64,000 nucleotides of DNA from Alphaproteobacteria bacterium (GTDB lineage Bacteria; Pseudomonadota; Alphaproteobacteria; CAAHEQ01; UBA3637). Below the pieces are notes generated by a model, which saw only the letters and a list, made by a program, of their open reading frames with translations, searched no databases and was not told the origin of the DNA. Shown here one piece after another: positions 42,454 to 58,809 of the stretch. Every line of letters starts with the position of its first letter. Within the stretch, counting starts at the first letter, position 1. The position numbers and the translations under genes are program-made. The stretch is from the NCBI GenBank assembly GCA_015062395.1, contig SUUS01000001.1:65429-129428 (forward strand), in the 5' to 3' direction.

Positions 42454-42530
42454 CGGAGCGTAGCTCAGTCTGGTAGAGTACTTGGTTTGGGACCAAGGTG
42501 CCGTAGGTTCAAATCCTATCGCTCCGACCA
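42454..42530 (+). tRNA. tRNA-Pro (anticodon TGG)
   Basis: 77 nt cloverleaf folded by hand: acceptor CGGAGCG/CGCTCCG, anticodon stem CTTGG/CCAAG loop TTTGGGA, T-arm GGTTCAAATCC, A73, CCA encoded. Confidence 0.9.
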
Positions 42531-42567: not shown

Positions 42568-43058
42568 GTTGTCCAATTCCCCTGCAAAGCCCTAGGACAG
42601 CCAACTGCTGAAAAGTGATTTTATACCAAAATCGATGTGGTTGCCGAGATTTTTCCAAATTGATATATACTTTTGCCCGAATATATATACCTTGTGCAAT
42701 GTGATTTTTTCGCCAGAGCCACTTGACCGTAAGTTATTGTTTTTGAATAATTGATTATAATGGTATGACATTAACTTTCCGAATCTTGCCAAGCAGTGGT
42801 TGGTTTAGAAACCCAAAAACTGATACCACAATTTGCACACACCTCTAAAAGCCTTATTTTATAAGGAGTTTAAATTTTTTATAACTTATACACATGGTGT
42901 TTGGGGCATATAAAGAGATTTTCATTTTTTTTGAAAAAAATGACTATTTTCTTGCAATTTTAGGTAGAAGTCGTTAAAATGTGACGGATTATAATTTTAT
43001 GCTGATAAATGAGGTGTTTTCATGGCAGACGATATTCAAATTCAAAAAATGGACGGCA

Positions 43059-43178
43059 TCACCTTTTTTTCAAGCTTTTTGTGATTGCTTCAATACCCGC
43101 TTTTACAGCGCGGTCAGCATCGGCCTTGGTTAATCCTGCTGTTTTAGCAATAGCTTCAACTAATTCTGTTTTATTCAT
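43059..43178 (-). pseudogene. Remnant of HU/IHF-family DNA-binding protein gene (first ~39 codons intact, then frameshift/decay)
   Basis: Minus-strand translation MNKTELVEAIAKTAGLTKADADRAVKAGIEAITKSLKKR* with AAGGAAA RBS; matches HU N-terminus (MNKTELV..IA...L.K)...; stop within poly-A tract; downstream frames do not resemble HU. Confidence 0.45.
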
Positions 43179-43322
43179 TGTATTTTCCTTTCTTTATATA
43201 TAAAGTTAAATGAAGGCTCATGATACCTTCATTTAGTATTAGAGAGAATTTAGATGGGTATGTCAAGAGGAAAATTAATTATACCAATAATCTGCATTAA
43301 GAGTGGCCAGTAATCTTTTTTC

Positions 43323-43393: not shown

Positions 43394-44908
43394 ATGACTT
43401 TAAAAAATACAAGAGCGAGCAACTATCCTGAGTGGTATCAGAATGTCATAACTGCAGCTGATATGGCAGAAGTATCTTCTTCGCCAGGATGCATGGTTAT
43501 TAAGCCTTGGGGGTATGGGATATGGGAACGTATTCAACGGGTTCTAGATGATAAGATCAAAGAAACAGGTCATGAGAATTGTTACTTTCCTCTATTTATT
43601 CCTTTAAGCTATTTTCAAAAAGAAGCAGAGCATGTTGAAGGTTTTGCTAAAGAAATGGCAATTGTTACTCATAGTCGCTTAACTATGCAAGATGGCAAAT
43701 TGACACCTGATGGAAAATTGGAAGAACCTCTTATTGTTCGTCCTACCTCTGAAACAATTATTGCGGATTCGTTCTCAAAATGGGTCAAATCATACAGAGA
43801 TTTGCCAATTATGATAAATCAATGGGCAAATGTTGTCCGTTGGGAGATGAGACCAAGAATCTTTTTACGAACAAGAGAGTTTTTATGGCAAGAAGGTCAC
43901 ACTGCACATGCTAGTTATGAGGAAGCGGAACAAGAAGCAAAAACCATGTTGAATGTGTATTCTGATGTGGCACGAGATGCTTTGGCTATGCCTGTTATAA
44001 AAGGACGCAAGCCCGAGCATGAAAAATTCCCAGGCGCTGTTGATACATATTGTATAGAAGCAATGATGCAGGATGGTAGAGCTTTACAAGCTGGTACCTC
44101 GCACTTTTTAGGCCAAAATTTTGCCAAATCAGCTGATATTAAGTTTCTAGGTAAGGATGGGAAACAACAATATGCATACACAACCTCTTGGGGTGTAACG
44201 ACACGTCTAATTGGTAGCTTAATTATGACGCACGCTGATGATGAAGGAATGGTCGTTCCTCCAAAGATTGCACCACATCAAATTGTTATCGTCCCTATCA
44301 TCAAAGATAAAGCTCAAAGAGAGGAAGTAATGTCCTACGTGATGCGCTTGTATTCTGCTTTATCTAAACAGAGCTATGATGGCGAAAAAATTCGTGTAAA
44401 AGTTGATACAAGAGACAAGGAATCTGTAGACAAAATGTGGGAGTGGACACGAAAAGGTGCCCCCATTGTATGTGAGGTTGGACCTCGTGACGTAAAAAAC
44501 AATGGTTTAATGGTCAGAACAAGAAATAAGATCAACACCCCAGAATGGAAACAAGTTGTTCAGTTTGATGATTTTGTTTCATCAGCTTCTAAGAGGTTGG
44601 AAGATTTCCATATGGATTTATATAACGCTGCGAATACTCGTTTACAACAAAATCAAAGAACAGATATTACAACGGCAGAGGAAATGCAAGCATATTTTGC
44701 GCAACAAAACTCTTGGGTAAACGGTCAAGGGCAAAAGGTAGCTTTTGTCCGTGGCAAATGGTCTGAAGATCCAGAAAGCGTTGATAAAATGAAGGAAATG
44801 AAAATTTCAATTCGCTGTATTCCTGAGGATCAATCTCAGAAGGAAGGAAATTGCCTTTTGACTAATAAAAAAGCGAAACTTGATGTTATTTATGCAAGAT
44901 CTTATTAG
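43394..44908 (+). CDS. proS: Proline--tRNA ligase, archaeal/eukaryote-like type (504 aa, C-terminal Tyr)
   Basis: Class II ProRS motifs (IVRPTSETII, FLRTREFLWQEGHTAH), no INS insertion, C-terminal domain ending ...IYARSY typical of archaeal-type ProRS. Confidence 0.9.
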   Translation: MTLKNTRASNYPEWYQNVITAADMAEVSSSPGCMVIKPWGYGIWERIQRVLDDKIKETGHENCYFPLFIPLSYFQKEAEHVEGFAKEMAIVTHSRLTMQDGKLTPDGKLEEPLIVRPTSETIIADSFSKWVKSYRDLPIMINQWANVVRWEMRPRIFLRTREFLWQEGHTAHASYEEAEQEAKTMLNVYSDVARDALAMPVIKGRKPEHEKFPGAVDTYCIEAMMQDGRALQAGTSHFLGQNFAKSADIKFLGKDGKQQYAYTTSWGVTTRLIGSLIMTHADDEGMVVPPKIAPHQIVIVPIIKDKAQREEVMSYVMRLYSALSKQSYDGEKIRVKVDTRDKESVDKMWEWTRKGAPIVCEVGPRDVKNNGLMVRTRNKINTPEWKQVVQFDDFVSSASKRLEDFHMDLYNAANTRLQQNQRTDITTAEEMQAYFAQQNSWVNGQGQKVAFVRGKWSEDPESVDKMKEMKISIRCIPEDQSQKEGNCLLTNKKAKLDVIYARSY

Positions 44909-44913
44909 AAAAA

Positions 44914-45573
44914 ATGAGCAAAATTTTTCTTTATCATGTAGATAAATCAAAAATTGATGAGTCTCAGCTTTCTGTTCTGGAGTCTATTTTGTCAGCAACA
45001 GAAAACAAAAGATTTAAAAAGATAAAAATGATAGATGCGAGAAAGAATTTTATTCTTTCTCGTTTTCTGATTAATAAGGCATTAATGAATTTCAATTGTG
45101 CGCAAAGATTTCATATTGGTAGAACTATATATGGGAAACCATATTTATCTCCAAATCCTAAAAATTTAAAAATATCAATAAGTCATACGAGAGATATTAT
45201 TTGCCTTTTAATTGCAAAAAATATAGAGTTTATAGGTGTTGATATAGAGGAAAAAAACAGAAAAATAAATAAAAAAGGTATTATAAATTTTCTGTACTCT
45301 CCTGATGAAAAATTGTATCTTAAAACAAAAGATTTGTATAAAAATTTTTTTAAATATTGGACCTTTAAGGAGGCATTTACGAAAGCTCTTGGAAAAGGAC
45401 TTTTAATTCCATTTAATCAAATATCCTTTTCCAAAAAATACCAAAAGTATTATGTTACCTCTGTGCCTATTGATATAAACTCTAATACAACAGGGTTCAT
45501 AGTATGTTTAGATAAAAATGAAAGATCAGCCGATATTAACATAAATAATGTTATTATAGGAGGGATAAAATGA
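44914..45573 (+). CDS. 4'-phosphopantetheinyl transferase, Sfp/EntD type
   Basis: 219 aa; motifs ISISHTRDIICLL and FIGVDIEE (metal-binding GxD..E), FKEAFTKALGKG (W/FxxKEA-K motif). Confidence 0.75.
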   Translation: MSKIFLYHVDKSKIDESQLSVLESILSATENKRFKKIKMIDARKNFILSRFLINKALMNFNCAQRFHIGRTIYGKPYLSPNPKNLKISISHTRDIICLLIAKNIEFIGVDIEEKNRKINKKGIINFLYSPDEKLYLKTKDLYKNFFKYWTFKEAFTKALGKGLLIPFNQISFSKKYQKYYVTSVPIDINSNTTGFIVCLDKNERSADININNVIIGGIK

Positions 45574-46409
45574 AAAGAATTTGTATTGCGACAGATGAAG
45601 ATAATATCAATGATCCTGAGAATTTACTAATTAGTAAAATTCTTAATGACATGGGAGCTAAAGCAGAATTGACTATTTGGGATAAACAAGAAAGTCTTTT
45701 CAAAGATTGCGACTATGTTTTAATTCGTTCTTGTTGGAATTATCACAAATACCCAGATAAATTTATTCAATGGATAAATTCTCTCAATATTCCAACAATC
45801 AACGCTAAGAGTTTAATCCAATGGAATATTCATAAAAAATATCTTCTTGAGTTAGAAAAACACAATATTGAAATTCCAAAAACATATGTTATTCAAAAAG
45901 AAAATGTAAAAGATTTTAATTTTAATATATTTGATGAATTTGTAATAAAACCAGCAATATCAGCAAGTGGCTATTTGACATATAAATATAATAAAAATGA
46001 TAGTGAAAAGGTAAATTCTTTACTTCCATTGTATTCTTCAGATGTTTTAATACAAGAATTCATTCCGGAAGTAATACAAGAAGGTGAAATATCCTTTGTA
46101 TTTTTCAACAATAGCTTTTCACATGCTGTAAAAAAAATACCTTCACTATCTGATTTCAGAAGTCAAGCAAGATATGGAGGAACTGTTAAAAATTTTATTC
46201 CAAATCAAGCTTTAAAAAATAAGGCAGTAGAAATAGTACAAAAAATCATGGATATCACTAACGAATGCCCTTTCTATATGAGATTAGATGCGGTTTTGAG
46301 AAAAAATAATTTAGTTATAATGGAAATTGAGGCAATTGAACCCAGGCTTTTTTTATCGAATTCAAATTGTGATATCTTTAAAAAAGCTTGGCAATCTATT
46401 CTTCCTTAA
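45570..46409 (+). CDS. ATP-grasp family ligase (RimK/glutathione-synthetase-like)
   Basis: ATP-grasp pattern FVIKPAISASGY...LIQEFIPEV...GEISFVFF; ATGA-coupled to PPTase. Confidence 0.6.
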   Translation: MKRICIATDEDNINDPENLLISKILNDMGAKAELTIWDKQESLFKDCDYVLIRSCWNYHKYPDKFIQWINSLNIPTINAKSLIQWNIHKKYLLELEKHNIEIPKTYVIQKENVKDFNFNIFDEFVIKPAISASGYLTYKYNKNDSEKVNSLLPLYSSDVLIQEFIPEVIQEGEISFVFFNNSFSHAVKKIPSLSDFRSQARYGGTVKNFIPNQALKNKAVEIVQKIMDITNECPFYMRLDAVLRKNNLVIMEIEAIEPRLFLSNSNCDIFKKAWQSILP

Positions 46410-49400
46410 CTGTATCTTCTAAAAGGGATATATACAAAGAAGCCCAGTCTTTAATGGTATTTATATCAAAACGATGAACATGATACCAAAAATTAAAACG
46501 AAGATTGCTTTTCTGCATGTCGACTATCAGAAATAATCCCGCTAATTCTCTTAAGGTTGAATAGTTTAATGTATTCAACAATGGTTCTGAAATGGTTCCA
46601 AGTGTTTCTAAAACTTCTACTTTAGGCCAGACATTGTCTTTTTCTTTGTGATAATTATTCAGCATGATATAGGCATCTGTGAAATAACTTGATCGAGAGA
46701 AATTCAAAAACTTTTCGACATACTTAGGTAAAAGATTCACTGGGTAGTAAGACCTTTCATTCACAAGAGATACAATACTATTAATTTGGGTTATTTGTGT
46801 CATATTAGAAAGAGTTTCATCTAAAGAAATCGGAAGTGGGAATTGTTTAACGAATGGGCCTATTGTTTCTTTAAAATTATCCTCTGTTCGTCCATTGAAA
46901 ACAGTTCCTATTAATAAATTATGTTGTCTTGTTAATTTTACCAATAACTTCGAATAAACAAACAACAATACTGAAAAAACGGATACATGCGCTTTATGAG
47001 CAAATTTATTTAAGGATTCATATACTTTTTCTGAAGAAAAAATGGTATAGCAACTTGACGGATAACACTGTTCAAAAAATTCATCTCCGGTTTTATTTGG
47101 CAAAATTACAGGACGTGCAATACCAGCATATAACCCACCAAAGAAGGCTTCATTTTCCTTTTCTGTCTCCAGTAAAAATTTATGTTGCCAATCTACATAT
47201 TGATCATAGAGAACTGGATTTGGGAGTCTCAAATGTGATTTTTGAAGAAAAGAGGCATAAAATTTTCTTAATTCTTCAACAAATACCGTCACAGATGTTC
47301 CATCGAATGGCAAATGATGCGTAAAAAGAAGACATATAAACTGATTATTATTTAACTTTAAAATTTTTAAAATCCAAGGTGGGGTTTTTGTAATATCAGG
47401 AAAAGAAGATGTTAACGTACATGCTAAATTTTTTATATATTCAGCAACATTTTCTACACCCTTCATATTCACAAAAATACTTTCACTAGAAATGAAATCT
47501 TTTATATTACAAGTTTCATAATGATTATCAACATAACAATGTGTCAAAATTGGATGTCTTGAAATAACCTCTTTTAAGGCGTTCAAAAATGAATTCTTTT
47601 TTAGTTCGCAATGGAAAAGTATTGGTATCAATAAATATCCATATTTAATTCTTTCTAATGCCACCCACCTTTGTTCTTCATATGATAACTTGTTTTCACT
47701 ATTGTTCTTATCCAAGACAATCTCTGTTTTTTCACATAGTTTTTTATCCAATGATTTACTGGAACAATTTTTGATACAAAAGGCTGTTAAATTTCTTAAA
47801 GTTCTTTCTTTAAATACAACACTAACAGGGAATGAAATATTTAACAAATGTCTAATAGCGTTACGTAATTCTATTGCGCTTAAAGAATCAAGTCCCAAAT
47901 CAAAAAGATCATCATCTTTTTCAATATGGCAATTATGTGTATATTTGTCTAAAACTCGAGCAACTTCGGATGAGACAATACTAGGAATGTCTTGAATGCT
48001 GTATTGAGTTAATGTATCCGTGTTCTTTTCCTCAACAGGCAAATAATCTTTTGCTAACAATCTAAAGAACGGGCTATTTTCGAGTTTATATTTTCTTAAA
48101 AAGATATTCCAATTCATAGGTAATAAAATTACCTGTTCTTGTAAACTAAGTATTGATGACATTATCTCATCGAAATCGTTTTTTTTAAGATAAGAATATC
48201 CCTTTTCTTCTAATTTCTGCTGTAGATTCTTGTTTATATCAATAGTTCCTAAGTCCCCCCATGCTCCCCAATTAATACTTAATGCTGGTAATCCCAAAGA
48301 TATCCTATATTTACACACAGAATCCAAGAATGCGTTTGCTGTTGTATAATTAGATTGTCCAGGATTTCCTATTACGGATACAGCGGAAGAAAAGACTACA
48401 AAAAAATCTAACTGTGTATTTAAAGAGAGTTTATGTAAATTCCATACTCCAAGAACCTTTGCCTTTGCAATTTTCTTAAAGTCCTCCATAGTCGTATTTG
48501 TAAAGGATTTATCCTCAATACAACCAGCCGCATGCACAATTCCACCGATATTTTTTATATCAAGTTTTGAAGACAATGCAAAAAACTTGCTCTCATCGGA
48601 AATATCCATACTTATATATTCTAGGTCTAATGTGTCATCAAGCAGCTTTAAAGTTCTTATTTGTTCTATCACCTCATTCTTTTCCCGACGGCCAACTATC
48701 ACAATTCGTTTTGCACCATTTTTAATGAGCCACTTACTGGTTAAAAGTCCTAATGCACCTACCCCCCCTGTCACTAAATATTGTTTTTTAGGAACTATAG
48801 TGAGTTTCCGTTCTGATGATAAAGAAATGGGGGCTAAAGTTGCTTCAAAGACACTTTTCCCGCCTGGATCAATTTGAAAAAAACTAAACGACTTTTGCTG
48901 ACGTATACACGAAGCAATCTTTGAAATAGAATTTTCTGTCAATGCCTTTGCAAAAAAACAAGAGCATTTGATTTCTGAATTTTCAAGACAAATTGTTTTT
49001 AAAAGAGAAACTAGAGATTCATTTAAAAAGTCATTACCAACAAAAATAAACGAAATATTTTCTATTTTCCCCATTAAAAAGGCTTCTTTTAAGGAATAAA
49101 AAACGTTTTTGATCTTATTTAAATAAAGCCTTAAGATATCAGATGAGGTGTAATTCTGCACATCATCGGAAATACTGTCTATAACATATACAATACGTTC
49201 TATTTTCTTCTTAAAAGAATCAAGTTTTTCTTTTAAGAAGAATGAGTTATTTGAAATATCTGTACTTACAAGGAGATTCTTTTCTGATGAGAAGTGTGCT
49301 ATTTGACTTTTATCTCCTATAATTAACGAATTCTCTATATAAGATTTAGAAAAATTAGAAAGCGAAACTGATTCCCATTGAATTTTGTATAAATCGTTTC

Positions 49401-52400
49401 TCCAACTTGCCTTTTGTAATAAATCAACCGGCTCAAGATAATATTTTTTTAAATCAAAAGGATAAGTTGGTAGTTCAATTAATAAACAATTATCTTTCGG
49501 TAGGATATGGTCAAAATTAACGGATATTCCTTTCGAAAATAATTTTCCAAATGCTGAAAGTAATTGTTCTGTATCATCAGTAGTTTTTCTCATCATAGGT
49601 ATATATGTTGCGTTCTGCTCATCATAACATTCTGCAACCATATTAAGAAGCACAGAATTTGGACCTATTTCCAAGAAAATATCAACATCCTTATTTTTTA
49701 AATTATGGATCATATTTTCAAAATTGACAGGTTGAATCATGTGGTTACACCAATAGTCTGAAGATATTTCTCCTGTTTGAATAAAATCCCCCGTTACATT
49801 TGAAAGTAATTTTATAAAAGGATCCTTAAATGAAAATTTGGAAAGATATTTTTTATATACCGCCACAAGGGGATTAGCAACACTTGAATGGCCAAAACTG
49901 CTGTTATCTAATTTTTGTGCTTCAATCTTCTGATCATGTAAAGCTTTAAAAAGTGATAGTATTCTCTCTGTTGGACCAGATACAACCACTAAATTAGGTG
50001 TATTGATAGATGCTATAGATATCTCATTATAGTTTTCCAACAGTTTTTCGACAGTATTTTTATTAGCTCTGATTGCTAACATTTTTGCATGAATTTTTAA
50101 TGAAGTTAACAAAACAGCTCTATGATAAACTATTTGAAGTAATTCATTTAATTTTAGTATACCAGCACAGTAAGCTGCAACGTATTCTCCCAAACTATGT
50201 CCTAATACAAATTTAGGCAAAATTGCCATTTGTTTTAAAATTTCTAGAATAGATACTTCTATGGCTACAATTGCCAGTTGATTTAAAATAACATCTTGTT
50301 CTGAATATTTTTCCTGTTTCCATATTATATCGATTAGATCAAAATCCGTAAATTTCTTTATAATTTTATTACATTCCTGAATCTTTTTCTTAAAAATAGC
50401 ATTTTTCTCATACAGCCTCTTTCCCATCCCAAAATATTGAGATGTATAACCAGAAAAAATAAAGGCAAGCTGTTGTTTTTGTGAGACCTTAAAATCATCT
50501 TTTGTAACAGATGGGAGTTTTAATCGTTTTTCAGTATTTGACAGTTCGTATATCAAACGATCCATTGTATTCGCAACAAAAGAGACCCTATAATCAAAAT
50601 GATATTTCCTCTTTAAAAGTGAATAAGAGATATCCTGTAGACGTAAATCACGATGATTTTCGAAGAAAATTCTATGATTGTGTATTATTTTAACTAAATC
50701 CTCGAATTTCTTTCCAGAAAAAACAAACAAATAAAAATTATTCTTTTGTTTTGTTTGGTTGTTTTTTTTGTGTGAATAACTTTCTAAAATGACATTAGCG
50801 TTAGTACCACCAAGACCAAAGGAATTCACTAAGCAATAATGTTTCTTTGATTTCCAAGGGATCGTTTTATTATTTACATAAAAGGGAGAATCATCCAACT
50901 CCAATAAGGGGTTATTTTTTTTAAAATGAAGTGTAGCAGGTATTTGTTTATGCTGAATACATAAAATTGCTTTTATTATCCCTGCCATGCCAGAAGCCCA
51001 ACCGAGATGACCTATATTAGTTTTTACGCTCCCAATAACGCAATCCCTTTTCCTATTATTACCGAAAACATTTTTTAATGCTTGGATTTCAACTGCATCT
51101 CCAACGACAGTTCCAGTTCCATGTGTTTCAATAAAAGAAATTTTATCTGGCAGTATGTTTGCATCTTTTAAAGCTTGCTGTAATGATCGTGTTTGTCCAT
51201 CAATTGTTGGTGCTAGAAAATTAGATTTCCCATTATTTCCATCATTACTAACACCACTTCCTGAAATAATGGCTAAAATATTATCTTTATCTTTTATGGC
51301 TTTTGATAGTGGTTTTAATAAAACTACTCCTAATCCTTGGGCCATCATCATACCTTCTGATCTTTCATCGAAAGTACGTGTATGGCCATCTGGTGACCAA
51401 GGCATGTCTTTTTGGAAAGTATATTTATGTTTTGATGGGGACATAATGTTTACAGCACCAACTAGTGCCATTTCACATTCTCCATTCAAAAGAGCTTGTT
51501 TTGCCAAGTGAATTGCAACCAACGATGAAGAACATGCAGATTGTACATTAATACTTGGTCCTTCTAACCCCAATTTAAAGGAAACTTTTGTTGGTAAGTA
51601 ATCCTTATCCCCGCCCATCATAACTTGCAAATCCGAAAAACGTTCGAAGAAATACCTATTAGAACGATAATCTAAGTTTGGGTTAAGGTTATTAACAAGA
51701 TAGCTACTAAATCCTTGGGAAGCAAAGACTCCTATCTTTTTAGTCGTATTATTGTTAAGATATCCTGTTTTTTCTAGTAGTTCCCAAGATAATTCCAAAA
51801 ACTTTCGTTGTTGTGGATCCATCATTTCTGCTTCAGTCTTTGAATATCCAAAGAATTCAGCATCAAACAAATTTGCATCATCAATTGTAGATGAACAAAA
51901 TACATCATGCTCAAAGGGATCCAGCATTGACAAATCCTGTGATGGGCCAAAAGATTCGATACTTTCTTTACCAGTTGAAAGAAAATTCCAAAATTCGTCA
52001 GGAGTATGGCACTTAGGAAAATTGCATGCCATTCCTATTACAGCGATTTTTTCTTTTACAGGTTTTCCAAAATCTTGAATAACTGCTTCTTTCCCCTGTA
52101 TTATATTTCCTTTTAAGAGATCAGATACAGCATTAAATGTACTATTTTTTAGTAGCATAGCAACTGGTATTTTTTGCTTGAATGTTTCGAAAATTTTCGT
52201 GTATAGCTGAAGCAAGAGTAATGAGGTTCCACCTAGCTCAAAGAATGTCTTATTTTTGTCAAAGTCGGTTATGTGCAAAAGATCTCGCCAGATTTCTTCC
52301 AACTTAGTCAATTCTGAATGGGTTGTTGTTTCTTTTTTTTCTATATACGTTTGAATTAATACTTTTCTATCCAGTTTCCCTGACGGGGTTCTCGGTAATT

Positions 52401-53811
52401 TGTCAATTACGACAAAATCTTTAGGAGTCATATAATTAGGCACCAGAGTACCAATGGATTGCTTTATATCCAAAATCTCAGTTTTTTCGTTTTTCAAGAC
52501 AATAAAAGCGACAAGGAAAGTGGGCCGATTTTCAGCCATTATCGGACAAACAGCACATTCAAGAACATTTTTATCTTTTGATAATAGGTACTCTATTTCT
52601 GCAAGTTCTATTCTATACCCACTTATTTTTACTTGGTCATCTTTTCGCCCAACGAATTCAAGTTGCTTTTTCTTGTTTAGCTTGACAATATCGCCTGTTG
52701 CATATAGAAGATTTTTTGTGTTTTGAGGATCTGGGATGAAAGATTTATTTGTATCCTTTGGATTATTTACATACCCTTTAGCAATAAACGGAGCACAGAT
52801 AAACAATTCACCCTCCGTAGTAGCTGTAAGTTTTTCATTTAGAATTTTTAACTGTATATTGGATATAGGCTTTCCTATGGGAGGGAGTTTCCCCCACTGA
52901 TTAACATTCTTTGGTAATGTAAACGAAGTGACAACATGGGTCTCACTCGGACCATACTGATTGATTAGACGGCAATGCTTTAGAATTTTAAAAAAAGAAC
53001 GAATTACTGGCGTTATAATCAACTGTTCACCGGCTGTGATTACTTCTTTAAGAGAGGTAGGAAAGGTTTTATTAAGATCTGCGATTTGCGCTATGTAATT
53101 TAACATTACTGCGGGGAGAAAAATCCGTTCAATCTTGAACTTGTCAATTAAGTACAGCAGTTTTTCAGGATCTTTTCTTTCATTTTCTTCAATCAGTACT
53201 AATGAAGCACCCGTACATAAAGTAGAAAAAATTTCTTGAAAAGAAACATCGAAGCTAATTGGGGCAAATTGTAATGTTCTTTTTATCGCAGATTCTTTAA
53301 TTTGCCATGTAATAAGATTTTCAAGAACTGATGTTGGCATAACAACACCCTTTGGAGCTCCCGTAGAACCAGAAGTAAATATAATATAGGCCAATTTACC
53401 AAAACCGTTATTGTTTACGGTTTTATTTCCCCTTGAATTTTTAATTATCTTTTCAAAAAAAACAAACTTTTTATTTCTTTTGTCAATGGTTACATCATCT
53501 GTGATAATTAAATTTGTACCGGATTTTTCCTGCATAAAATTCAAACGCTCGACAGGATAACTCTTATCAAGTGGAACATAAGGGTTTCCAGACTTTAGAA
53601 TTCCTAAAATAGAGATAATTAACTCTATTGATCTGTCAAATAGTACTCCTACTGGTTTCTTATAATTTAATGATTTTATATAACCTGCAACTAAATCTGA
53701 TTTGAAATCTAATTCTCCATAAGTTAGCTCTATACCATCCTTAATAATGGCTACCTTATCGGGAGTCTCGACACAAATCTTCTTAAAATTGTTATATAAA
53801 CTACTTTGCAT
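46396..53811 (-). CDS. Hybrid NRPS-PKS megasynthase: A - T - KS - AT - KR - ACP - C (2471 aa)
   Basis: A domain cores (LTYGEL, LKSGNPYVPLD, YIIFTSGSTGAPKGV, YATGD, GRKDDQVKISGYRIELAEIE, PSGKLDR); T (ELGGTSL, Ser ~530); KS (QSACSSS Cys~760, ETHGTGT, NIGHL); AT (GHSLGE Ser~1206); KR (TGGVGALG, NYTTAN); ACP (LGLDSL Ser~1976); C-terminal condensation domain (HHLPFDG ~2165-2171); no TE. Confidence 0.9.
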   Translation of the reverse strand: MQSSLYNNFKKICVETPDKVAIIKDGIELTYGELDFKSDLVAGYIKSLNYKKPVGVLFDRSIELIISILGILKSGNPYVPLDKSYPVERLNFMQEKSGTNLIITDDVTIDKRNKKFVFFEKIIKNSRGNKTVNNNGFGKLAYIIFTSGSTGAPKGVVMPTSVLENLITWQIKESAIKRTLQFAPISFDVSFQEIFSTLCTGASLVLIEENERKDPEKLLYLIDKFKIERIFLPAVMLNYIAQIADLNKTFPTSLKEVITAGEQLIITPVIRSFFKILKHCRLINQYGPSETHVVTSFTLPKNVNQWGKLPPIGKPISNIQLKILNEKLTATTEGELFICAPFIAKGYVNNPKDTNKSFIPDPQNTKNLLYATGDIVKLNKKKQLEFVGRKDDQVKISGYRIELAEIEYLLSKDKNVLECAVCPIMAENRPTFLVAFIVLKNEKTEILDIKQSIGTLVPNYMTPKDFVVIDKLPRTPSGKLDRKVLIQTYIEKKETTTHSELTKLEEIWRDLLHITDFDKNKTFFELGGTSLLLLQLYTKIFETFKQKIPVAMLLKNSTFNAVSDLLKGNIIQGKEAVIQDFGKPVKEKIAVIGMACNFPKCHTPDEFWNFLSTGKESIESFGPSQDLSMLDPFEHDVFCSSTIDDANLFDAEFFGYSKTEAEMMDPQQRKFLELSWELLEKTGYLNNNTTKKIGVFASQGFSSYLVNNLNPNLDYRSNRYFFERFSDLQVMMGGDKDYLPTKVSFKLGLEGPSINVQSACSSSLVAIHLAKQALLNGECEMALVGAVNIMSPSKHKYTFQKDMPWSPDGHTRTFDERSEGMMMAQGLGVVLLKPLSKAIKDKDNILAIISGSGVSNDGNNGKSNFLAPTIDGQTRSLQQALKDANILPDKISFIETHGTGTVVGDAVEIQALKNVFGNNRKRDCVIGSVKTNIGHLGWASGMAGIIKAILCIQHKQIPATLHFKKNNPLLELDDSPFYVNNKTIPWKSKKHYCLVNSFGLGGTNANVILESYSHKKNNQTKQKNNFYLFVFSGKKFEDLVKIIHNHRIFFENHRDLRLQDISYSLLKRKYHFDYRVSFVANTMDRLIYELSNTEKRLKLPSVTKDDFKVSQKQQLAFIFSGYTSQYFGMGKRLYEKNAIFKKKIQECNKIIKKFTDFDLIDIIWKQEKYSEQDVILNQLAIVAIEVSILEILKQMAILPKFVLGHSLGEYVAAYCAGILKLNELLQIVYHRAVLLTSLKIHAKMLAIRANKNTVEKLLENYNEISIASINTPNLVVVSGPTERILSLFKALHDQKIEAQKLDNSSFGHSSVANPLVAVYKKYLSKFSFKDPFIKLLSNVTGDFIQTGEISSDYWCNHMIQPVNFENMIHNLKNKDVDIFLEIGPNSVLLNMVAECYDEQNATYIPMMRKTTDDTEQLLSAFGKLFSKGISVNFDHILPKDNCLLIELPTYPFDLKKYYLEPVDLLQKASWRNDLYKIQWESVSLSNFSKSYIENSLIIGDKSQIAHFSSEKNLLVSTDISNNSFFLKEKLDSFKKKIERIVYVIDSISDDVQNYTSSDILRLYLNKIKNVFYSLKEAFLMGKIENISFIFVGNDFLNESLVSLLKTICLENSEIKCSCFFAKALTENSISKIASCIRQQKSFSFFQIDPGGKSVFEATLAPISLSSERKLTIVPKKQYLVTGGVGALGLLTSKWLIKNGAKRIVIVGRREKNEVIEQIRTLKLLDDTLDLEYISMDISDESKFFALSSKLDIKNIGGIVHAAGCIEDKSFTNTTMEDFKKIAKAKVLGVWNLHKLSLNTQLDFFVVFSSAVSVIGNPGQSNYTTANAFLDSVCKYRISLGLPALSINWGAWGDLGTIDINKNLQQKLEEKGYSYLKKNDFDEIMSSILSLQEQVILLPMNWNIFLRKYKLENSPFFRLLAKDYLPVEEKNTDTLTQYSIQDIPSIVSSEVARVLDKYTHNCHIEKDDDLFDLGLDSLSAIELRNAIRHLLNISFPVSVVFKERTLRNLTAFCIKNCSSKSLDKKLCEKTEIVLDKNNSENKLSYEEQRWVALERIKYGYLLIPILFHCELKKNSFLNALKEVISRHPILTHCYVDNHYETCNIKDFISSESIFVNMKGVENVAEYIKNLACTLTSSFPDITKTPPWILKILKLNNNQFICLLFTHHLPFDGTSVTVFVEELRKFYASFLQKSHLRLPNPVLYDQYVDWQHKFLLETEKENEAFFGGLYAGIARPVILPNKTGDEFFEQCYPSSCYTIFSSEKVYESLNKFAHKAHVSVFSVLLFVYSKLLVKLTRQHNLLIGTVFNGRTEDNFKETIGPFVKQFPLPISLDETLSNMTQITQINSIVSLVNERSYYPVNLLPKYVEKFLNFSRSSYFTDAYIMLNNYHKEKDNVWPKVEVLETLGTISEPLLNTLNYSTLRELAGLFLIVDMQKSNLRFNFWYHVHRFDINTIKDWASLYISLLEDTVKEE

Positions 53812-54043
53812 GATTCTGAATGAAACTCACAACATCCCCTATCGCTTTCATTTTGGCTATTTCTTCATTTGGAAAAGAAATATTAAATTTTTCTTCCAAC
53901 CGAAAAAATAAATCCATTTTATCTAAGGAATCCACTTCCATTTCTTTAAAAGACATATCACTGGTCAATATCTTATCATGTAAAGCGAACTTTACCTCTT
54001 TTAACGTTTCTTGAACTATTTGAAAAATATCGTTATCACTCAT
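53801..54043 (-). CDS. Discrete acyl carrier protein
   Basis: 80 aa, MEVDSLDKMDL with DSL phosphopantetheine-attachment motif; overlaps megasynthase start by 11 nt. Confidence 0.75.
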   Translation of the reverse strand: MSDNDIFQIVQETLKEVKFALHDKILTSDMSFKEMEVDSLDKMDLFFRLEEKFNISFPNEEIAKMKAIGDVVSFIQNHAK

Positions 54044-55004
54044 TTTTGCCTCCTGTCAATGTTAATAAACAATTACACCAAGAAAAACCCGTTCCAAATC
54101 CAGATAATACAAGGTAATTAGCATCTTTTTGTTTCAGATGTGGCTCTAGGATTAATGGGATTGATGATGAACTCGTATTACCATAATTAGCCGCTTTGAA
54201 TTTTAACTGATTTTCTTTTAGATTCAGGGTCGAAGATAATCTTTCCAGTAGATATCTTGATGGTTGATGACACAAAAACTCAGAAATATCACAAGTATCC
54301 AGTCCGTTTTTTAACAATAAGTTTTTAATTGATGCTGGAATTTCTTTCAACACATTATTAAAGACCATACGACCATCCATTCTTAAAAAATTTTTTTCTA
54401 TTATGGTCTCATAAGAATTTGGCAATGTTCCAAAATCCCAATCTTTTAAAATATATCCTGTTGAAACATCTTTTGTTATATAAGTCACTGTTGCTGCGTC
54501 GCCAAAGAGTAATACTGTATTTTTATCTTTTGGGTCTAGAATCCTCGATAACTGGTCACATGTGAAGAAGAGAGCGTTTTTCAAATGAAGGGTTTTCATC
54601 ATAGATAAAACGGTTAGTAAAGCATGGCAAAAACCAGCACATCCTTGACCGATATCAAAAGTAATACATTTTTTTGATAAACCTATTTTATTATGTAAAA
54701 TCGCGGACATATATGGAGCCTTATGATCTGGTGTTTGTGTTACCGTACATACTAAATCAATATTTTCAATGTCAATTTTGATTTTTTTCTCTAAATCATG
54801 CCATGCAGATAAACACATATCAGCCAAAGTCTGATGTTCTTTTATTTTAGACCTCCTAATTATTCCCAATTTATTTTCTATGAAATCTGGACTTACCTCA
54901 AAAGTTGTTAATAAATCCATATTATTTACATAGTTATCTGGAATATAAGTGCCAATACATTTTATTTTAAAGTTTTGCAAGCTCATCCCTCCTATTGATT
55001 TCAT
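54036..55004 (-). CDS. 3-oxoacyl-ACP synthase III (FabH-like KAS III)
   Basis: Active-site Cys in GQGCAGF, His/Asn region, C-terminal GFGTGFSW. Confidence 0.8.
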   Translation of the reverse strand: MKSIGGMSLQNFKIKCIGTYIPDNYVNNMDLLTTFEVSPDFIENKLGIIRRSKIKEHQTLADMCLSAWHDLEKKIKIDIENIDLVCTVTQTPDHKAPYMSAILHNKIGLSKKCITFDIGQGCAGFCHALLTVLSMMKTLHLKNALFFTCDQLSRILDPKDKNTVLLFGDAATVTYITKDVSTGYILKDWDFGTLPNSYETIIEKNFLRMDGRMVFNNVLKEIPASIKNLLLKNGLDTCDISEFLCHQPSRYLLERLSSTLNLKENQLKFKAANYGNTSSSSIPLILEPHLKQKDANYLVLSGFGTGFSWCNCLLTLTGGKNE

Positions 55005-56067
55005 ATATTGGGAAATATGTTGGAATTTCAGAATTTTGATAATCTAGTATTAGTTGTGGAATATCTTCCCAACAATAGGTATACACGTCATCTATTATAG
55101 GCATCCAATTGTGCGAAATTGCATAGTTCATCGCATCTAAAGCTTCCTGACGATTTGCATAATGAGTATTTACATGTATGTGTCGATTAATGCATTCAAC
55201 CGTTCTTGAAATAGGAAGTAAGGATCCTGTCTTCCAACCACATGATGAAATTACGGCGTTCCTTCCCAATCCTTTTAGTGCTATTTTTGTGAATGTTCCT
55301 CCTAAATTATCTATAAATATTGATGCTCCCTCATTATGTGTTTCTCTTGAAATATACGACAAAAAATCTTTTTCAAAATCCTTAAATGTGGTTCGATTTA
55401 TGGGGATTATCCCTGAAGAACGAGCATATCTCTCTCTGTACTCATTTGATACCGTCATATAAACACTAAACCCCACTTTTTTTGCGAGAAGAAGTTCAGC
55501 ATATGAAACTCCACCACCATAAGCAAAAACGGACAATCCCTTTGGCTTTCGTTTCGAAAAGGTTTGTATTTTCCAACAGCCATACGCTTGCCGCCAATTT
55601 GAATAAGCAGAAATGAAGCGACCAGAGAATGCGGCCCATTGTTTCAAGGAAAATTGTGAATTTGGGGGTATCTTAATAACCTGTTCCTCTTTCAATTTGA
55701 TTTTTTTTGCTAAATTTCCCATAATTCCTTTTGCATCATAACCCGCTATCTTTATCGGATAACCTTGGGCGTCAGAGATACCATTCCCAAAATAAATGGC
55801 AAAATCACCAATTTCCACTGAGGAAACCTTCTTTCCTCTATTTTGAATATAAAGAACACCAGTATTACCCAAAATTATTTCTTCTTCTGCTCTATCTTCA
55901 TTAATGTTTGTGGGAACTTTTTGTACAGCATGTAAGATGTTTGCTTCAAAACAACCATAAACAGGTAAAGCCAATACCTCATCATCCTCAATATCCGGAA
56001 AATGAATTATTTTTCGTTCTAAAATAGATGAATCCTTCTGTAAAACATACGCCTCTGTTTCAATCAT
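54967..56067 (-). CDS. Medium-chain dehydrogenase/reductase family oxidoreductase (putative trans-acting enoyl reductase)
   Basis: MDR fold with nucleotide-binding AYGGGVSYAELLLAKKVG; operon position between KAS III and DH. Confidence 0.55.
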   Translation of the reverse strand: MIETEAYVLQKDSSILERKIIHFPDIEDDEVLALPVYGCFEANILHAVQKVPTNINEDRAEEEIILGNTGVLYIQNRGKKVSSVEIGDFAIYFGNGISDAQGYPIKIAGYDAKGIMGNLAKKIKLKEEQVIKIPPNSQFSLKQWAAFSGRFISAYSNWRQAYGCWKIQTFSKRKPKGLSVFAYGGGVSYAELLLAKKVGFSVYMTVSNEYRERYARSSGIIPINRTTFKDFEKDFLSYISRETHNEGASIFIDNLGGTFTKIALKGLGRNAVISSCGWKTGSLLPISRTVECINRHIHVNTHYANRQEALDAMNYAISHNWMPIIDDVYTYCWEDIPQLILDYQNSEIPTYFPIYEINRRDELAKL

Positions 56068-56840
56068 TTTTTGCTCCGAAGTAAATACGTTTTACTCAAA
56101 GTACTTGGCTGTATTTTGGATATTATACTAAAACCAATTTGTTTAATCTCATCCTCTGATACATCTTCGTATAAAAGAGTTGCAGCTTTTTGTGGTAAAC
56201 GTAACAGAATATTAACATTAGTTTTGGCGGTATCTTTAATTTTTAATAATGTTTTTTTCTTATTAGATAGTCCATTTGCTAAAAGTACGATATTTTCATC
56301 CTTATACGAGAAATCAAAGGATCTCTTTTTTATAAACGTGAAATCTTTTGAAATATCTTTGGAGCACGTCTGTTTGATATACGCTTCAGAGGCTTTAAGA
56401 GCTTGTGTATCATAATCCAAACAAACTGGTATAATCCTCTGATAATTTTGTTTAAGTTCAATTAATGTTTCAGGGTGGTATCCACTACCAGCCATAAGAC
56501 AACGTTTCTGGCTGGATAGATCCTTAATAAGATTAAATTCGCAAAGAACTCCAGCATATCCTTCTTTTTCAAGAATGGATATGCTATTTACCTTTTCACC
56601 ATTCAAAAAATCCTTAACCTTGTTCCTTTCTAATTCTTTTATATACTTATTCCATTTTAAAGAAATTTCCTTTTTATCATCAGAAGATAAAGAAGTAAGC
56701 AAGTCAGAGATTTCATTTTCAGATAAACCAATTAAAATCTTCCAAAAATCCTGAAAGACTAATAAGTCAGGTTCAGTGTAATAAGCCTTTAAAGGTATAG
56801 ATAAAACCTTTTGCGTAATTTGTAATATGGACACTCTCAT
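56064..56840 (-). CDS. Hypothetical protein (258 aa), possible SAM-dependent/nicotianamine-synthase-like fold
   Basis: Weak resemblance of CLMAGSGYHPETL and NIVLLANGL to Rossmann-type SAM-binding motifs; in-operon, ATGA-coupled to downstream gene. Confidence 0.35.
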   Translation of the reverse strand: MRVSILQITQKVLSIPLKAYYTEPDLLVFQDFWKILIGLSENEISDLLTSLSSDDKKEISLKWNKYIKELERNKVKDFLNGEKVNSISILEKEGYAGVLCEFNLIKDLSSQKRCLMAGSGYHPETLIELKQNYQRIIPVCLDYDTQALKASEAYIKQTCSKDISKDFTFIKKRSFDFSYKDENIVLLANGLSNKKKTLLKIKDTAKTNVNILLRLPQKAATLLYEDVSEDEIKQIGFSIISKIQPSTLSKTYLLRSKK

Positions 56841-56912: not shown

Positions 56913-57353
56913 TTACTCACTGACAGCAGTTGAAGAAAAAATAGCTTCTGCAACAATTCTATTGTTGATTCTAATTGTTCCTTCAAACTTATAAGCATTA
57001 CCGATAGAGTGTTTTTTTATAGCCTCAATGTAAAGAGTATCTCCAGGGCGAGCTTGCCCTCTAAATTTTGCACTTTCAATAGTCATAAAAAGAAAAATTA
57101 AATTATGACATTTTCTTTCTTTAAGGTCAAAATACATCAGTATATTCGACAATTGGGACATTGCTTCAACAAAGAAAGTTCCAGGAAAAATGGGGTTATT
57201 TGGGAAATGTCCTTTTAAGAAGAATTCATCTGATGAAATTTCTTTTATGCCCGAAATTTTATCACTGGTATAGTCCAACACAGCGTCAACCATCAACATA
57301 GGATAACGATGCGGAAGAATTGTTTTTATTTTTTCTAAATCTAAACTTGGCAT
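56913..57353 (-). CDS. 3-hydroxyacyl-ACP dehydratase FabZ-like (hotdog fold)
   Basis: LPHRYPMLMVD and GHFPNNPIFPG FabZ signatures; first gene of minus-strand biosynthetic operon. Confidence 0.8.
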   Translation of the reverse strand: MPSLDLEKIKTILPHRYPMLMVDAVLDYTSDKISGIKEISSDEFFLKGHFPNNPIFPGTFFVEAMSQLSNILMYFDLKERKCHNLIFLFMTIESAKFRGQARPGDTLYIEAIKKHSIGNAYKFEGTIRINNRIVAEAIFSSTAVSE

Positions 57354-57452: not shown

Positions 57453-57529
57453 TGGTCGGAGTGGCGGGATTTGAACCCACGACCCCTACGTCCCGAACGT
57501 AGTGCTCTACCAAACTGAGCTACACTCCG
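57453..57529 (-). tRNA. tRNA-Pro (anticodon CGG)
   Basis: Minus-strand 77-nt cloverleaf: acceptor CGGAGTG/CACTCCG, anticodon stem CTACG/CGTAG loop TTCGGGA, T-arm GGTTCAAATCC, A73, CCA encoded. Confidence 0.85.
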
Positions 57530-58073: not shown

Positions 58074-58074
58074 A

Positions 58075-58809
58075 ATGGAAAAATTCATTCAAAATCATCA
58101 CATATACAGCTATGAATGTGACAAAGAAGGAAAATTAAGGTTATTAACATTATTCAATCTTTTGCAACACATGGCCGATTCGCATGCAGATTTATTAAAT
58201 CTTGGATATAAAAATTTTTCCACTCGAAATATAACTTGGGTTGGTTCGCATTATGCACTTCACATAAATAAACGTCCAAAATGGAATGAAAACGTTATTA
58301 TTGAAACATGGCCATCTGGTTTGGGACCTGTTTCTGCGATTCGAGACTTTAGGGTTCTATCCCCCAAAAATGAACCTTTATTTACTGCATCGAGTCAATG
58401 GGTCATAATTGATTTAAGTTCTGGTCGGCCTCAACCGACAAAAAAATATGTTAATAATTTAGAATCGCTTGAAGAAAGAGCTCTTGATACAAAGTTTCCT
58501 ACCATACCAACTGTTCAAAGACAGGATTTTCAGAAAGATTTTTATGTTCGTTACGATGATATAGACATCAATCAACATGTGAATAATGCTATTTATCCTG
58601 TTTGGGCTAGCGAGTCGGTCCCTAATGACTTTAGAGAATCGAACGAAATCGAAGATTTAGAAATTTCATTCAAAAAACCAGCATTTTATGGACAAAAAAT
58701 AAAAGTTTCAACTCAAATTGATGAAAATACATCGCTTCATCAAATTTTTTCAGATGATAAAAGCATTGAATTTGCTCGCATTCGTATAAAATGGCGTAAA
58801 AAAAGTTAA
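58075..58809 (+). CDS. Acyl-ACP thioesterase (FAT/FatA-B family, tandem hotdog)
   Basis: 244 aa; YECDKEGKLRL..., NQHVNNAIY conserved acyl-ACP TE motifs; 1-nt gap after MazG-like gene. Confidence 0.7.
   Translation: MEKFIQNHHIYSYECDKEGKLRLLTLFNLLQHMADSHADLLNLGYKNFSTRNITWVGSHYALHINKRPKWNENVIIETWPSGLGPVSAIRDFRVLSPKNEPLFTASSQWVIIDLSSGRPQPTKKYVNNLESLEERALDTKFPTIPTVQRQDFQKDFYVRYDDIDINQHVNNAIYPVWASESVPNDFRESNEIEDLEISFKKPAFYGQKIKVSTQIDENTSLHQIFSDDKSIEFARIRIKWRKKS

Follow-up and report, generated by a model that had tools for sequence, protein, structure and literature searches.

What does a single-module synthase make when it carries no thioesterase and ends in a condensation (C) domain, and how does it let its product go? 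The question is raised by a gene at 46396..53811 on the minus strand of a 64,000-nucleotide stretch of DNA from an Alphaproteobacteria bacterium (contig SUUS01000001.1 of assembly GCA_015062395.1, positions 65,429 to 129,428; hereafter the window, in whose numbering all coordinates are given). The uninterrupted open reading frame (ORF) of 2471 aa encodes a hybrid of nonribosomal peptide synthetase (NRPS) and polyketide synthase (PKS) with the order adenylation (A), thiolation (T), ketosynthase (KS), acyltransferase (AT), ketoreductase (KR), acyl carrier protein (ACP) and C, as read from the ORF list with its translation and from Pfam and NCBIfam models. Judged from sequence comparison, the ORF appears to be the core enzyme of a conserved, widespread and orphan one-module NRPS-PKS pathway that combines a module for loading proline, a single extension by alkylmalonyl and a C domain at the end with, very often, a second prolyl-tRNA synthetase (ProRS) of type I. 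The explanation to which we lean, without giving it quite an even chance, is that proline serves as the starter, an alkylmalonyl unit extends it, the C domain releases the chain and the type I ProRS provides immunity.

The domains can be placed along the protein as follows, all on the minus strand. The A domain (aa 11-479, 52375..53781) matches Pfam AMP-binding and reaches 326 bits on TIGR01733, above its cutoff, and is followed by a T domain (aa ~500-567, 52111..52314) with a PP-binding match in two stretches and its GGTS serine at aa 530. The KS (aa 587-963, 50923..52053), assigned by Pfam and the family alignment, presents Cys760 in QSACSSS together with the HGTG and NIGH histidines. The AT (aa 1117-1429, 49525..50463) carries GHSLGE at aa 1204-1209, Arg1231 and SFGH at aa 1305-1308, and the KR (aa 1678-1852, 48256..48780; Pfam, alignments) keeps its catalytic Tyr1822 in GQSNYTTAN. 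A cis ACP (aa ~1950-2020, 47752..47964; Pfam PP-binding) with LGLDSLS at aa 1972-1978 precedes the terminal C domain (aa 2066-2469, 46405..47616), which scores 150 bits on Pfam PF00668 Condensation and contains THHLPFDGTS at aa 2164-2173. The catalytic residues are complete, including the Cys/His/His of the KS, the NADPH motif and Lys/Ser/Tyr of the KR and the serines of both carriers. Pfam finds no thioesterase, dehydratase (PS-DH) or enoylreductase (ER) domain in the 2471 aa. An earlier note on this DNA, made from its letters, had described a megasynthase that lacks a thioesterase, ends in a C domain and has no embedded dehydratase or ER, and both the domain models and the THHLPFDGTS motif bear this description out. 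The locus is not an assembly artefact, since independent metagenome samples from JGI and ENA yield its gene order again on more than 20 contigs; a relative with 65% identity also shares the gene order of the window, and organisms of the window type are met in many metagenomes. The public JGI gene call (P0001, 2236 aa) begins at the internal Met236 and misses the N-terminal half of the A domain, the codons before Met236 being the first 235 of the ORF (window 53105-53811). The call is truncated, and annotation-based searches would therefore misjudge the architecture of the synthase.

Related loci that were compared with the window are labelled L001-L028. Full-length homologues with the same seven domains were recovered at 30-36% identity in the protein search and at 25-40% over all searches. 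A C-domain profile scan of GTDB species genomes yielded 15 further loci, the hosts of which are uncultured Gammaproteobacteria, a "Moraniibacteriota" bin, Aquabacterium, Clostridia metagenome-assembled genomes (MAGs), three Streptomyces, Polaribacter, Pseudomonas kairouanensis KC12, Pseudomonas sp. 286, Photorhabdus tasmaniensis T327 and a Moraxellaceae MAG. In addition, phmmer was run exhaustively against 1.84 billion cluster representatives and returned 1745 proteins at E<=1e-30, and about 45 of the best 150 matches are single-domain matches of 30-40% identity to proteins of 1900-2600 aa with the C domain at the extreme C-terminus. The C domain is present in every related locus and terminal in all single-stretch relatives; a terminal C domain is the signature of the synthase family. 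The A-T portion forms a separate ORF just upstream of KS-AT-KR-ACP-C in L007-L009 and L016-L020. Two of these loci (L007:4244-11296 and L008:5174-11287) carry an embedded C-methyltransferase domain before the KR, and L006 and L008 have no cis AT, so that the family includes an AT-less variant. No published counterpart of the synthase or of the cluster was found in the literature; PKS/NRPS clusters described for Rickettsia-type bacteria (R. buchneri, Ca. Megaira) were considered and differ from that of the window.

The identity of the starter can be approached through the A-domain pocket. The core motifs of A domains include A4 FDxS, A5 NxYGPTE and A10 GK. The pocket residues were read by motif anchoring, using FDVSFQEIF at aa 187, RIF-LPA, VITAGEQ, NQYGPSETHVV and SGKLDR as anchors, and pocket position 278 was placed according to what we take to be the GrsA numbering. 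The resulting code is DVQFIAQVVK, which, as read by motif, fits the proline pattern DVQ[FLY][IV]A[HQ]VVK. The proline code is a shared feature of 28 family members, position 322 being either Q or H (six related loci have DVQFIAHVVK), and only the Aquabacterium enzyme deviates. Codes listed for proline elsewhere are DVQY[IV]AHVVK in friulimicin and laspartomycin and DVQFVAQVVK or DVQFVSQVMK in telomycin (PMC9113097). Proline is therefore the likely starter as far as pocket residues can indicate. The linker between T and KS is about 20 aa long, and the BLAST alignment to ordinary NRPS-PKS hybrids runs unbroken through A-T-KS-AT, over about 59% of the query. Because of the proline code, the short linker and this unbroken alignment, the most parsimonious reading is the colinear one, in which prolyl-S-T is passed to the KS. 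The A domain would thus activate L-proline or a very close analogue and load it onto T, and the KS would extend prolyl-S-T by one C2 unit across a T-KS junction of apparently canonical hybrid type.

The extender unit is selected by an AT that resembles neither of the two standard types. The domain was aligned with the ATs of CurL, ZmaA and DEBS and with the family alignments. Here, S-H-A-F-H-S of CurL aligns with S-S-F-G-H-S of the window, which makes S1305-F1306-G1307-H1308 the equivalents of HAFH; the earlier note had placed a non-canonical FGHS motif at aa 1306-1309, correctly as to its location and its unusual character but one residue out of register. Malonyl specificity is not matched, with SFGH standing for HAFH and GYTSQ for GQGSQ, and the domain is not of the methylmalonyl type either (SFGH and GHSLGE against YASH and GHSQGE). 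The carboxylate-binding Arg1231 is kept within YHRAV (aa 1229-1233), and this arginine in combination with Gly1307 at the Phe/Ser position would place the domain among alkylmalonyl-selecting ATs. Among family members with a cis AT, a single one lacks glycine at this position. Ossamycin AT7, with SPGH, selects isobutyrylmalonyl-CoA, smaller residues being typical of ATs for exotic alkylmalonyl-CoA substrates (PMC6490886), and PlyU, with VPGH, is proposed to select 2-(2-methylbutyl)malonyl (PMC3943440). The extender would accordingly be a bulkier alkylmalonyl unit, not malonyl or methylmalonyl, chosen by an AT with glycine at the size-determining position of SFGH.

A putative source of such a unit lies directly upstream of the synthase on the same strand. 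A discrete ACP gene (53801..54043; 80 aa, PP-binding match, DSL serine in EVDSLD) overlaps the synthase start and is preceded by genes for a FabH-like ketoacyl synthase III (KASIII; 54036..55004, 322 aa), with PDB FabH matches at 1e-37 and an aligned Cys-His-Asn triad, and for a divergent enzyme of the medium-chain dehydrogenase/reductase (MDR) superfamily (54967..56067, 366 aa), with a weak ADH_zinc_N match, which is a candidate enoyl-ACP reductase/carboxylase. The first gene of this minus-strand operon encodes a FabA/FabZ-type dehydratase (56913..57353; Pfam FabA 2.5e-25), and its position is kept in L021-L028 and L003. The carrier serine, the triad and the Pfam matches confirm the discrete ACP, KASIII, MDR and FabZ neighbours named in the earlier note. 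The window, L001-L005, L010-L012 and L021-L028 all have the MDR (360-366 aa), KASIII and ACP genes in this order ahead of the synthase; in L009 the synthase is flanked by KASIII and ACP on its upstream side and by the MDR gene on its downstream side. In L013, L014, L016, L017, L019 and L020 the trio is absent and a true crotonyl-CoA carboxylase/reductase (CCR) gene stands immediately upstream. The CCR copies that were scanned (L013, L016 and L017) reach about 510 bits on TIGR01751, the cutoff of which is 378.55, whereas those of L014, L019 and L020 were found by tblastn; the best solved relatives of the L016 enzyme are 9kva and AntE (2e-128). The AT motifs can be set beside this distribution: SFGH in the window, VGGH, TSGH and TAGH in the MDR-KASIII-ACP loci, VAGH in the P0030 protein, RAGH in L009 (KASIII-ACP and MDR), L015 (MDR only), the Streptomyces loci L013/L014 (true CCR) and L018 (no supply gene identified), RPGH in the true-CCR loci L016, L017, L019 and L020, and HAFH only in L007, which has neither MDR-KASIII-ACP nor CCR in its available sequence. 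The earlier suggestion that MDR and KASIII feed an unusual extender is supported by this co-occurrence of glycine-type ATs with either the trio or a CCR, as well as by precedent from the polyoxypeptin (ply) cluster. Since the discrete ACP vanishes where a CoA-linked CCR replaces the trio, and the C domain never does, the trio including this ACP most likely supplies an alkylmalonyl extender and not a nucleophile for the C domain.

In the ply precedent, orf5-orf6-orf7 form one operon for a CCR-like MDR of 377 aa, a KASIII of 312 aa and an ACP of 82 aa (PMC3943440), and the window resembles it in the order and sizes of the three genes (366, 322 and 80 aa) and in the glycine of the AT motif. The authors of that study proposed that the operon builds an ACP-tethered alkylmalonyl extender (PMC3943440). 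Differences are that the ply cassette also has branched-chain keto-acid dehydrogenase genes and that the MDR of the window is far more divergent from true CCRs, with no match to the CCR model TIGR01751. An attempt to assign its function by sequence search against PDB failed, as a single match at E=7e-5 was obtained. At the profile level, the MDR family aligns with true CCRs in hhalign at 98% probability over 313 columns, and the residues that are invariant within it (E41/N43, Y110-D111 and H302) coincide with the CCR motifs VNxN, WG[YF]E and GSHxAN, which presumably hold the CO2-pocket residues (Asn, Phe, Glu, His). This match is suggestive of a reductive carboxylase but is not proof of one. 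By analogy, KASIII, FabZ and a ketoreductase would build an enoyl-ACP on the discrete ACP, the MDR acting as a reductive carboxylase would convert it into alkylmalonyl-ACP, and the AT would move the unit to the cis ACP, as co-occurrence and literature precedent suggest. The Streptomyces, Pseudomonas, Photorhabdus and Moraxellaceae relatives, with a true CCR upstream and R[AP]GH ATs, resemble the supply systems of AntE (antimycin), CinF, SalG and RevT, whereas the window has the ACP-linked trio and no true CCR. The family thus offers a natural comparison of two alkylmalonyl routes, CoA-linked CCR and ACP-linked MDR/KASIII, that serve homologous ATs. Two further features occur in loci with the trio. 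L003 encodes FabD, FabG, FabZ, a full acetyl-CoA carboxylase (AccC, AccD, AccA, BCCP) and a protein of the biotin/lipoate ligase family (L003:2014-7018 and 17344-18348), and an isocitrate/isopropylmalate-dehydrogenase-family gene upstream is common to L003, L005 and L010-12.

The oxidation state of the extended chain depends on the KR, and here the family is divided. The catalytic Tyr is kept in the window (aa 1818-1826, 48334-48360) and in CCR-type loci, while His replaces it (GQxNHAxAN) in all 11 aligned protein homologues and in 10 of the 16 aligned related loci; a KR subfamily with His for the catalytic Tyr represents an enzymological question in itself. Because the KR of the window keeps this Tyr, the beta-hydroxy outcome predicted in the earlier note is reasonable. 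The product of the window should be a beta-hydroxy acyl chain, which FabZ could dehydrate, and the KR would give 3-hydroxy-2-alkyl-3-(pyrrolidin-2-yl)propanoyl-S-ACP. The relatives with a His-type KR may instead keep the beta-keto group, cyclise and O-methylate. A gene for a methyltransferase of about 250 aa lies close downstream of the synthase in most relatives, directly adjacent in several, and is absent from the window. In dolastatin-15 biosynthesis, the discrete O-methyltransferase Dol15G methylates a tetramate formed from an amino acid and malonate, and the C-like enzyme JamQ is proposed to close the pyrrolinone ring of jamaicamide (PMC13643306, PMC2799420). The synthase family resembles JamO/JamP/JamQ and Dol15F/Dol15G in that an amino acid is extended by one malonate, with C-like ring closure proposed for JamQ, and most relatives, though not the window, resemble the dolastatin-15 system further in having a downstream methyltransferase; they also have a KR without the catalytic Tyr. 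It differs in the nitrogen involved, which is an amide within a long chain in jamaicamide and dolastatin-15 and would here be the free ring nitrogen of the starter proline. Moreover, the window lacks the methyltransferase and keeps the KR Tyr, and the role of JamQ is itself a proposal only. The methyltransferase of the relatives was also considered as an azetidine-2-carboxylate synthase of the AzeJ/VioH type; this was rejected, as its best PDB matches are ordinary methyltransferases (HvrF, 3ege) and it shows no AzeJ/VioH match at E<=0.01.

A second ProRS and the tRNA-Pro genes that flank the cluster are the most informative features of the locus. The earlier note had passed over them, as it had the proline specificity of the A domain and the nicotianamine-synthase-like gene described below. 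The gene at 43394..44908 (plus strand) encodes a type I, archaeal/eukaryote-like ProRS (TIGR00408, 490 bits against a cutoff of 437). A housekeeping type II ProRS (NF006625, 675 bits against a cutoff of 558) is encoded outside the cluster at 34919..36637 on the minus strand, the two types lying within 10 kb of each other and sharing 26% local identity. As the window also encodes this complete type II enzyme, the gene at 43394 is an extra copy. Proteobacteria and Streptomyces normally use a type II ProRS, which is shown directly here only for the window. In a tblastn survey, 10 of about 15 lineages counted as independent have a type I ProRS gene at most 7 kb from the synthase (window, L001, L003/4, L005, L008, L009, L010-12, L013/14, L016/19 and L020), and the contigs of L006 and L007 break off on the flank that would be expected to hold it. 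The linkage spans five classes, namely Alpha-, Beta- and Gammaproteobacteria, Actinobacteria and Clostridia MAGs. The chance of finding proS in a 20-kb stretch of a genome with one or two copies of it is well under 1%, and the association of ProRS with the synthase is therefore taken to be functional. Simple synteny was rejected as its source: the genes vary from locus to locus in order, orientation and spacing, and several phyla are represented among the hosts.

An extra copy beside the synthase, a type II copy in the same window and co-conservation across taxa together form a target-duplication pattern. Target copies of aminoacyl-tRNA synthetases provide immunity in the mupirocin (IleRS), borrelidin (ThrRS) and vibriomycin (ThrRS) systems, and obafluorin likewise has a ThrRS immunity copy. 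The locus is like these clusters in having a divergent synthetase copy a few kb from PKS/NRPS genes and a housekeeping copy elsewhere, and unlike them in that the synthetase is ProRS. No natural-product cluster with a ProRS immunity gene was found in the literature, the coverage of which was incomplete. The type I ProRS would act as a self-resistance copy; because a proline-loading domain and the target-duplication pattern coincide, the product can be pictured as a proline mimic that would inhibit the bacterial-type (type II) ProRS and that the type I enzyme would bypass. That the product inhibits ProRS, with the type I copy conferring self-resistance, is a roughly evenly balanced proposition. 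A more specific version is possible but doubtful: that this is the first recognised cluster family with a ProRS immunity gene, the product being a proline-derived beta-hydroxy or beta-keto acyl compound that mimics prolyl-adenylate and is selective for type II enzymes. Its pyrrolidine and 1,3-dioxygenated chain would imitate prolyl-adenylate, the C domain would attach a group that fills the adenosine or tRNA pocket, the type I enzyme would have been acquired horizontally, and the two flanking tRNA-Pro genes would further tie the cluster to proline decoding. ProRS is a validated drug target (halofuginone, febrifugine) with antimalarial and antifibrotic programmes. To our knowledge no microbial pathway to a ProRS inhibitor is known, and none was found in the literature either. 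Since the family occurs in cultured, tractable strains (P. kairouanensis KC12, Pseudomonas sp. 286, Streptomyces sp. A5-4 and TRM49041, Photorhabdus tasmaniensis T327), the ProRS-inhibitor prediction is directly testable. A translation-targeting molecule, if real, would be relevant to the competition of the host bacterium with other bacteria or to its interaction with a host.

The two tRNA-Pro genes, detected by ARAGORN and Rfam, are tRNA-Pro(UGG) at 42454..42530 (plus strand) and tRNA-Pro(CGG) at 57453..57529 (minus strand). They bracket the cluster with their 3' ends inward and show the bacterial identity elements C1:G72 and A73 with an encoded CCA. None of 20 related loci contains a tRNA-Pro gene; the flanking genes are specific to this genome and were rejected as a family trait. 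Insertion at a tRNA gene, selection for linkage or chance could each account for the bracketing. The two tRNAs are all that Rfam reports for the window at gathering thresholds; no riboswitch or leader is detected. A short minus-strand ORF (~43040-43180), located in the gap that separates tRNA-Pro(UGG) from the type I ProRS gene, resembles by eye the first 45 residues of a DNA-binding protein of the HU/IHF type and may be a gene remnant.

The remaining step is release, for which the C domain is the candidate. The His-xxx-DG motif is kept in 17 of 17 aligned loci, the relatives presenting QH[LI][DE]FDG with an invariant second His against THHLPFDGTS in the window. A profile of eight family members scores best on elongation C domains, some of which follow epimerization (E) domains (BacC 2.5e-36, PvdL C3 4e-26, DhbF 1e-22, Txo2 and TycB1, ranging to 6e-22), then on the E domains of TycA, TycB3 and GrsA (6e-18 to 4e-15), and less well on the CDA starter C (4.5e-12), VibH (2.6e-5) and the lovastatin-type CON domain (6e-3). 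The earlier note had read this as a condensation domain; with C domains scoring above E domains and the motif intact in all 17 loci, it looks catalytically competent and resembles neither an epimerase nor an inactive fold. It appears to belong to a divergent clade of elongation type, without finer subtype resolution. An AlphaFold2 (AF2) model of the domain has only C-superfamily matches in Foldseek, SgcC5 first. Assigning a subtype from structure was abandoned, since in this predicted model the E-values for SgcC5, SrfA-C, TycB, DhbF, CmnI, X, heterocyclization (Cy) and E domains lie within about two orders of magnitude.

With its His intact, the C domain would off-load the chain as an amide or an ester, and its universally terminal position raises the question of the acceptor for the whole family. 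Two acceptors are ranked about equal. In the first case, the pyrrolidine nitrogen would attack the thioester to give a five-membered lactam (a pyrrolizidinone), on the model of the JamQ-type pyrrolinone closure; this would need no extra component and would suit minimal clusters. In the second case, the acceptor would be a free amine or alcohol, perhaps made or attached by the nicotianamine synthase (NAS)-like or ATP-grasp enzyme of the cluster (see below), and the proline-like nitrogen would stay free, for which reason this option fits a ProRS-directed product better. Two others are ranked lower. A T-bound amino acid might be used where extra A-T proteins exist (L001, L015). The chain might also be transferred to prolyl-S-T itself, as in SalA/SalB, an option placed lower because only the A-T portion can prime the KS in CCR-type loci.

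Several observations weigh against the explanation built up so far, in which a proline starter and an alkylmalonyl extender are followed by C-domain release and type I ProRS immunity. The MDR enzyme lies off the CCR model and has almost no PDB relatives; it could be a plain enoyl reductase. The type I ProRS looks normal: its best PDB match is the Thermus thermophilus enzyme (1e-129), the conserved motifs match and no resistance signature is seen. It is 40-53% identical to other cluster-linked copies, about as close as to T. thermophilus ProRS, and this is about what unrelated type I ProRS enzymes would show. No ProRS gene was found within the 10-kb flanks of L015, L017 and L018. With respect to release, a lactam at the pyrrolidine nitrogen would make a poor proline mimic and would sit awkwardly with ProRS as the target, and the C domain is similar to common elongation C domains, for which an aminoacyl acceptor bound to a carrier is the norm. 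In addition, the AF2 models of the C domain (pLDDT 65) and of the NAS-like protein (pLDDT 67) are of low confidence.

The ProRS observations among these are accommodated if the type I enzyme is not an immunity protein at all. It might be biosynthetic, supplying Pro-tRNA or helping to activate proline, it might guard against a proline-analogue intermediate, or it might be a passenger of the island; this is unlikely, though far from negligible. Its active site without obvious deviation and the three lineages lacking a linked copy would then need no special account, the NAS-like enzyme might make an azetidine-type or N-alkylated proline analogue, and aminoacyl-tRNA synthetase genes in PKS clusters can indeed be biosynthetic (bioRxiv 2020.06.01.128595). 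However, no tRNA-dependent enzyme (CDPS, Fem-type or PEARL-type) is seen in any locus, the co-localisation across the five classes persists through changes of order and orientation, and a complete type II enzyme is already present in the window, as in the pattern of mupirocin, borrelidin and obafluorin. Immunity stays the preferred role of the type I ProRS.

The elongation character of the C domain would fit a salinosporamide-like pathway, which is improbable here. In this case, the PKS would make a short acyl chain, the C domain would transfer it to the nitrogen of prolyl-S-T, the A-T portion would be the acceptor module, and a trans thioesterase or a Dieckmann reaction yielding a bicyclic tetramate would release the product from T. 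SalA (ending in ACP-C) and SalB (A-PCP) provide the parallel of a PKS that ends in a C domain, an A-T portion that is sometimes separate, a CCR-derived extender (SalG) and a duplicated target (SalI). The separate A-T ORFs of L007-L009 and L016-L020, the expectation of a T-bound aminoacyl acceptor, the type II thioesterase (TEII) that follows the synthase in L016, L017, L019 and L020 and the possibility that KASIII and ACP prime the KS in window-type loci all agree with it. Against this, SalA has its own loading ACP and AT, whereas no loading AT or ACP is present here and the A-T portion is the sole loading unit, fused to the KS; only A-T could load the KS in CCR-type loci, and T and KS are contiguous with single-block homology to NRPS-to-PKS junctions. 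The duplicated target also differs, being ProRS instead of a proteasome subunit. Colinear use of prolyl-S-T as the starter is retained.

Slightly more improbable still is that the C domain is not the release catalyst, its role being structural or in another step, and that the chain leaves as a linear beta-hydroxy acid through a trans hydrolase. This could be the acyl-ACP thioesterase encoded in the window at 58075..58809 or one of the TEII or beta-lactamase-fold enzymes of relatives. The acyl-ACP thioesterase gene lies 1.2 kb from the start of the operon and is syntenic on all contigs of this organism, and TEII or beta-lactamase-fold genes recur among the relatives, but the C domain with its invariant His-xxx-DG is the most constant feature of the family, and the acyl-ACP thioesterase and MazG genes occur in no other related locus, are divergently transcribed and look like housekeeping genes. 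Finally, the model of the earlier note, which has the C domain join the polyketide to a nucleophile on the discrete ACP at 53801..54043, draws on the overlap of this gene with the synthase start, its valid DSL serine and the normal use of carrier-bound acceptors by elongation C domains, yet it is very improbable, as the ACP strictly accompanies KASIII and MDR and is missing from CCR loci that all have the C domain, no second A domain or aminotransferase in the cluster could place an amine on it, and the same operon is read as an extender cassette in ply.

Release by the C domain remains the preferred reading, and two further enzymes of the cluster may bear on the acceptor. Genes for an Sfp-type phosphopantetheinyl transferase (PPTase) and an ATP-grasp ligase follow the type I ProRS gene in what appears to be one operon, which converges on the 3' end of the synthase gene. 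The PPTase (44914..45573, plus strand; Pfam ACPS, AASDHPPT_N) recurs in L003, L005, L007, L008, L010 and L015. The ATP-grasp gene (45570..46409, plus strand; Pfam ATP-grasp) has no homologue in the other loci and occurs only in the version of the cluster found in this organism. Its translation is coupled to that of the PPTase gene, and at its 3' end it shares 14 nt with the oppositely oriented synthase gene, reaching over the stop of the latter; its product is distantly similar to the D-cycloserine synthetase DcsG (NCBIfam DcsG, 99 bits against a cutoff of 360).

The other enzyme is a 258-aa candidate S-adenosylmethionine-dependent NAS/CntL-like protein encoded at 56064..56840 on the minus strand, between the FabZ and MDR genes, which has no Pfam match. 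Its top phmmer match in PDB is CntL at E=0.23, its homologue in L007 matches Pfam NAS at E=2.4e-4 (21 bits, below the cutoff of 27), and its AF2 model, predicted as noted above, finds MtNAS as the top Foldseek match (E=1.4e-7, TM-score 0.47) with CntL at rank 11. These three weak but independent pointers suggest an aminobutyryl transferase of the nicotianamine-synthase/CntL family. The motif M-x-G-x-G-x-x-P-E-T-L is conserved among its relatives, and homologues lie by the synthase in L007 (1487-2329), L008 (2519-3346) and L021 (2331-3107), those of L007 and L008 directly upstream of A-T in loci without a discrete methyltransferase. It is speculation that the enzyme makes an azetidine-type or N-aminocarboxypropyl amine, to be used as the acceptor or as a proline analogue.

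Some additional genes accompany the loci. Class A-like beta-lactamase-fold genes were seen in L001 (17567-18427), L016 (12013-12930) and L020, and PF00144-type beta-lactamase-fold genes in L013 (14895-16139) and L015 (2430-3635), the window showing neither of these two families; their recurrence may point to a hydrolysable ring in the product or to a maturation or immunity hydrolase. A gene for a VanX-like M15 D-Ala-D-Ala dipeptidase stands upstream of the PPTase, NAS-like and synthase genes in L007 (93-530) and L008 (969-1775), in the latter immediately after the type I ProRS gene. Divergent from the cluster, the plus strand of the window at 57654-58809 encodes a MazG-like pyrophosphohydrolase and the acyl-ACP thioesterase, both genes being syntenic on all contigs of this organism. 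The host appears to be a low-GC (about 32%) alphaproteobacterium, and the window also encodes alpha-type AddA/AddB, an alternative ValRS, PPDK, PFK, a heptose epimerase, an autotransporter and a Fic protein.

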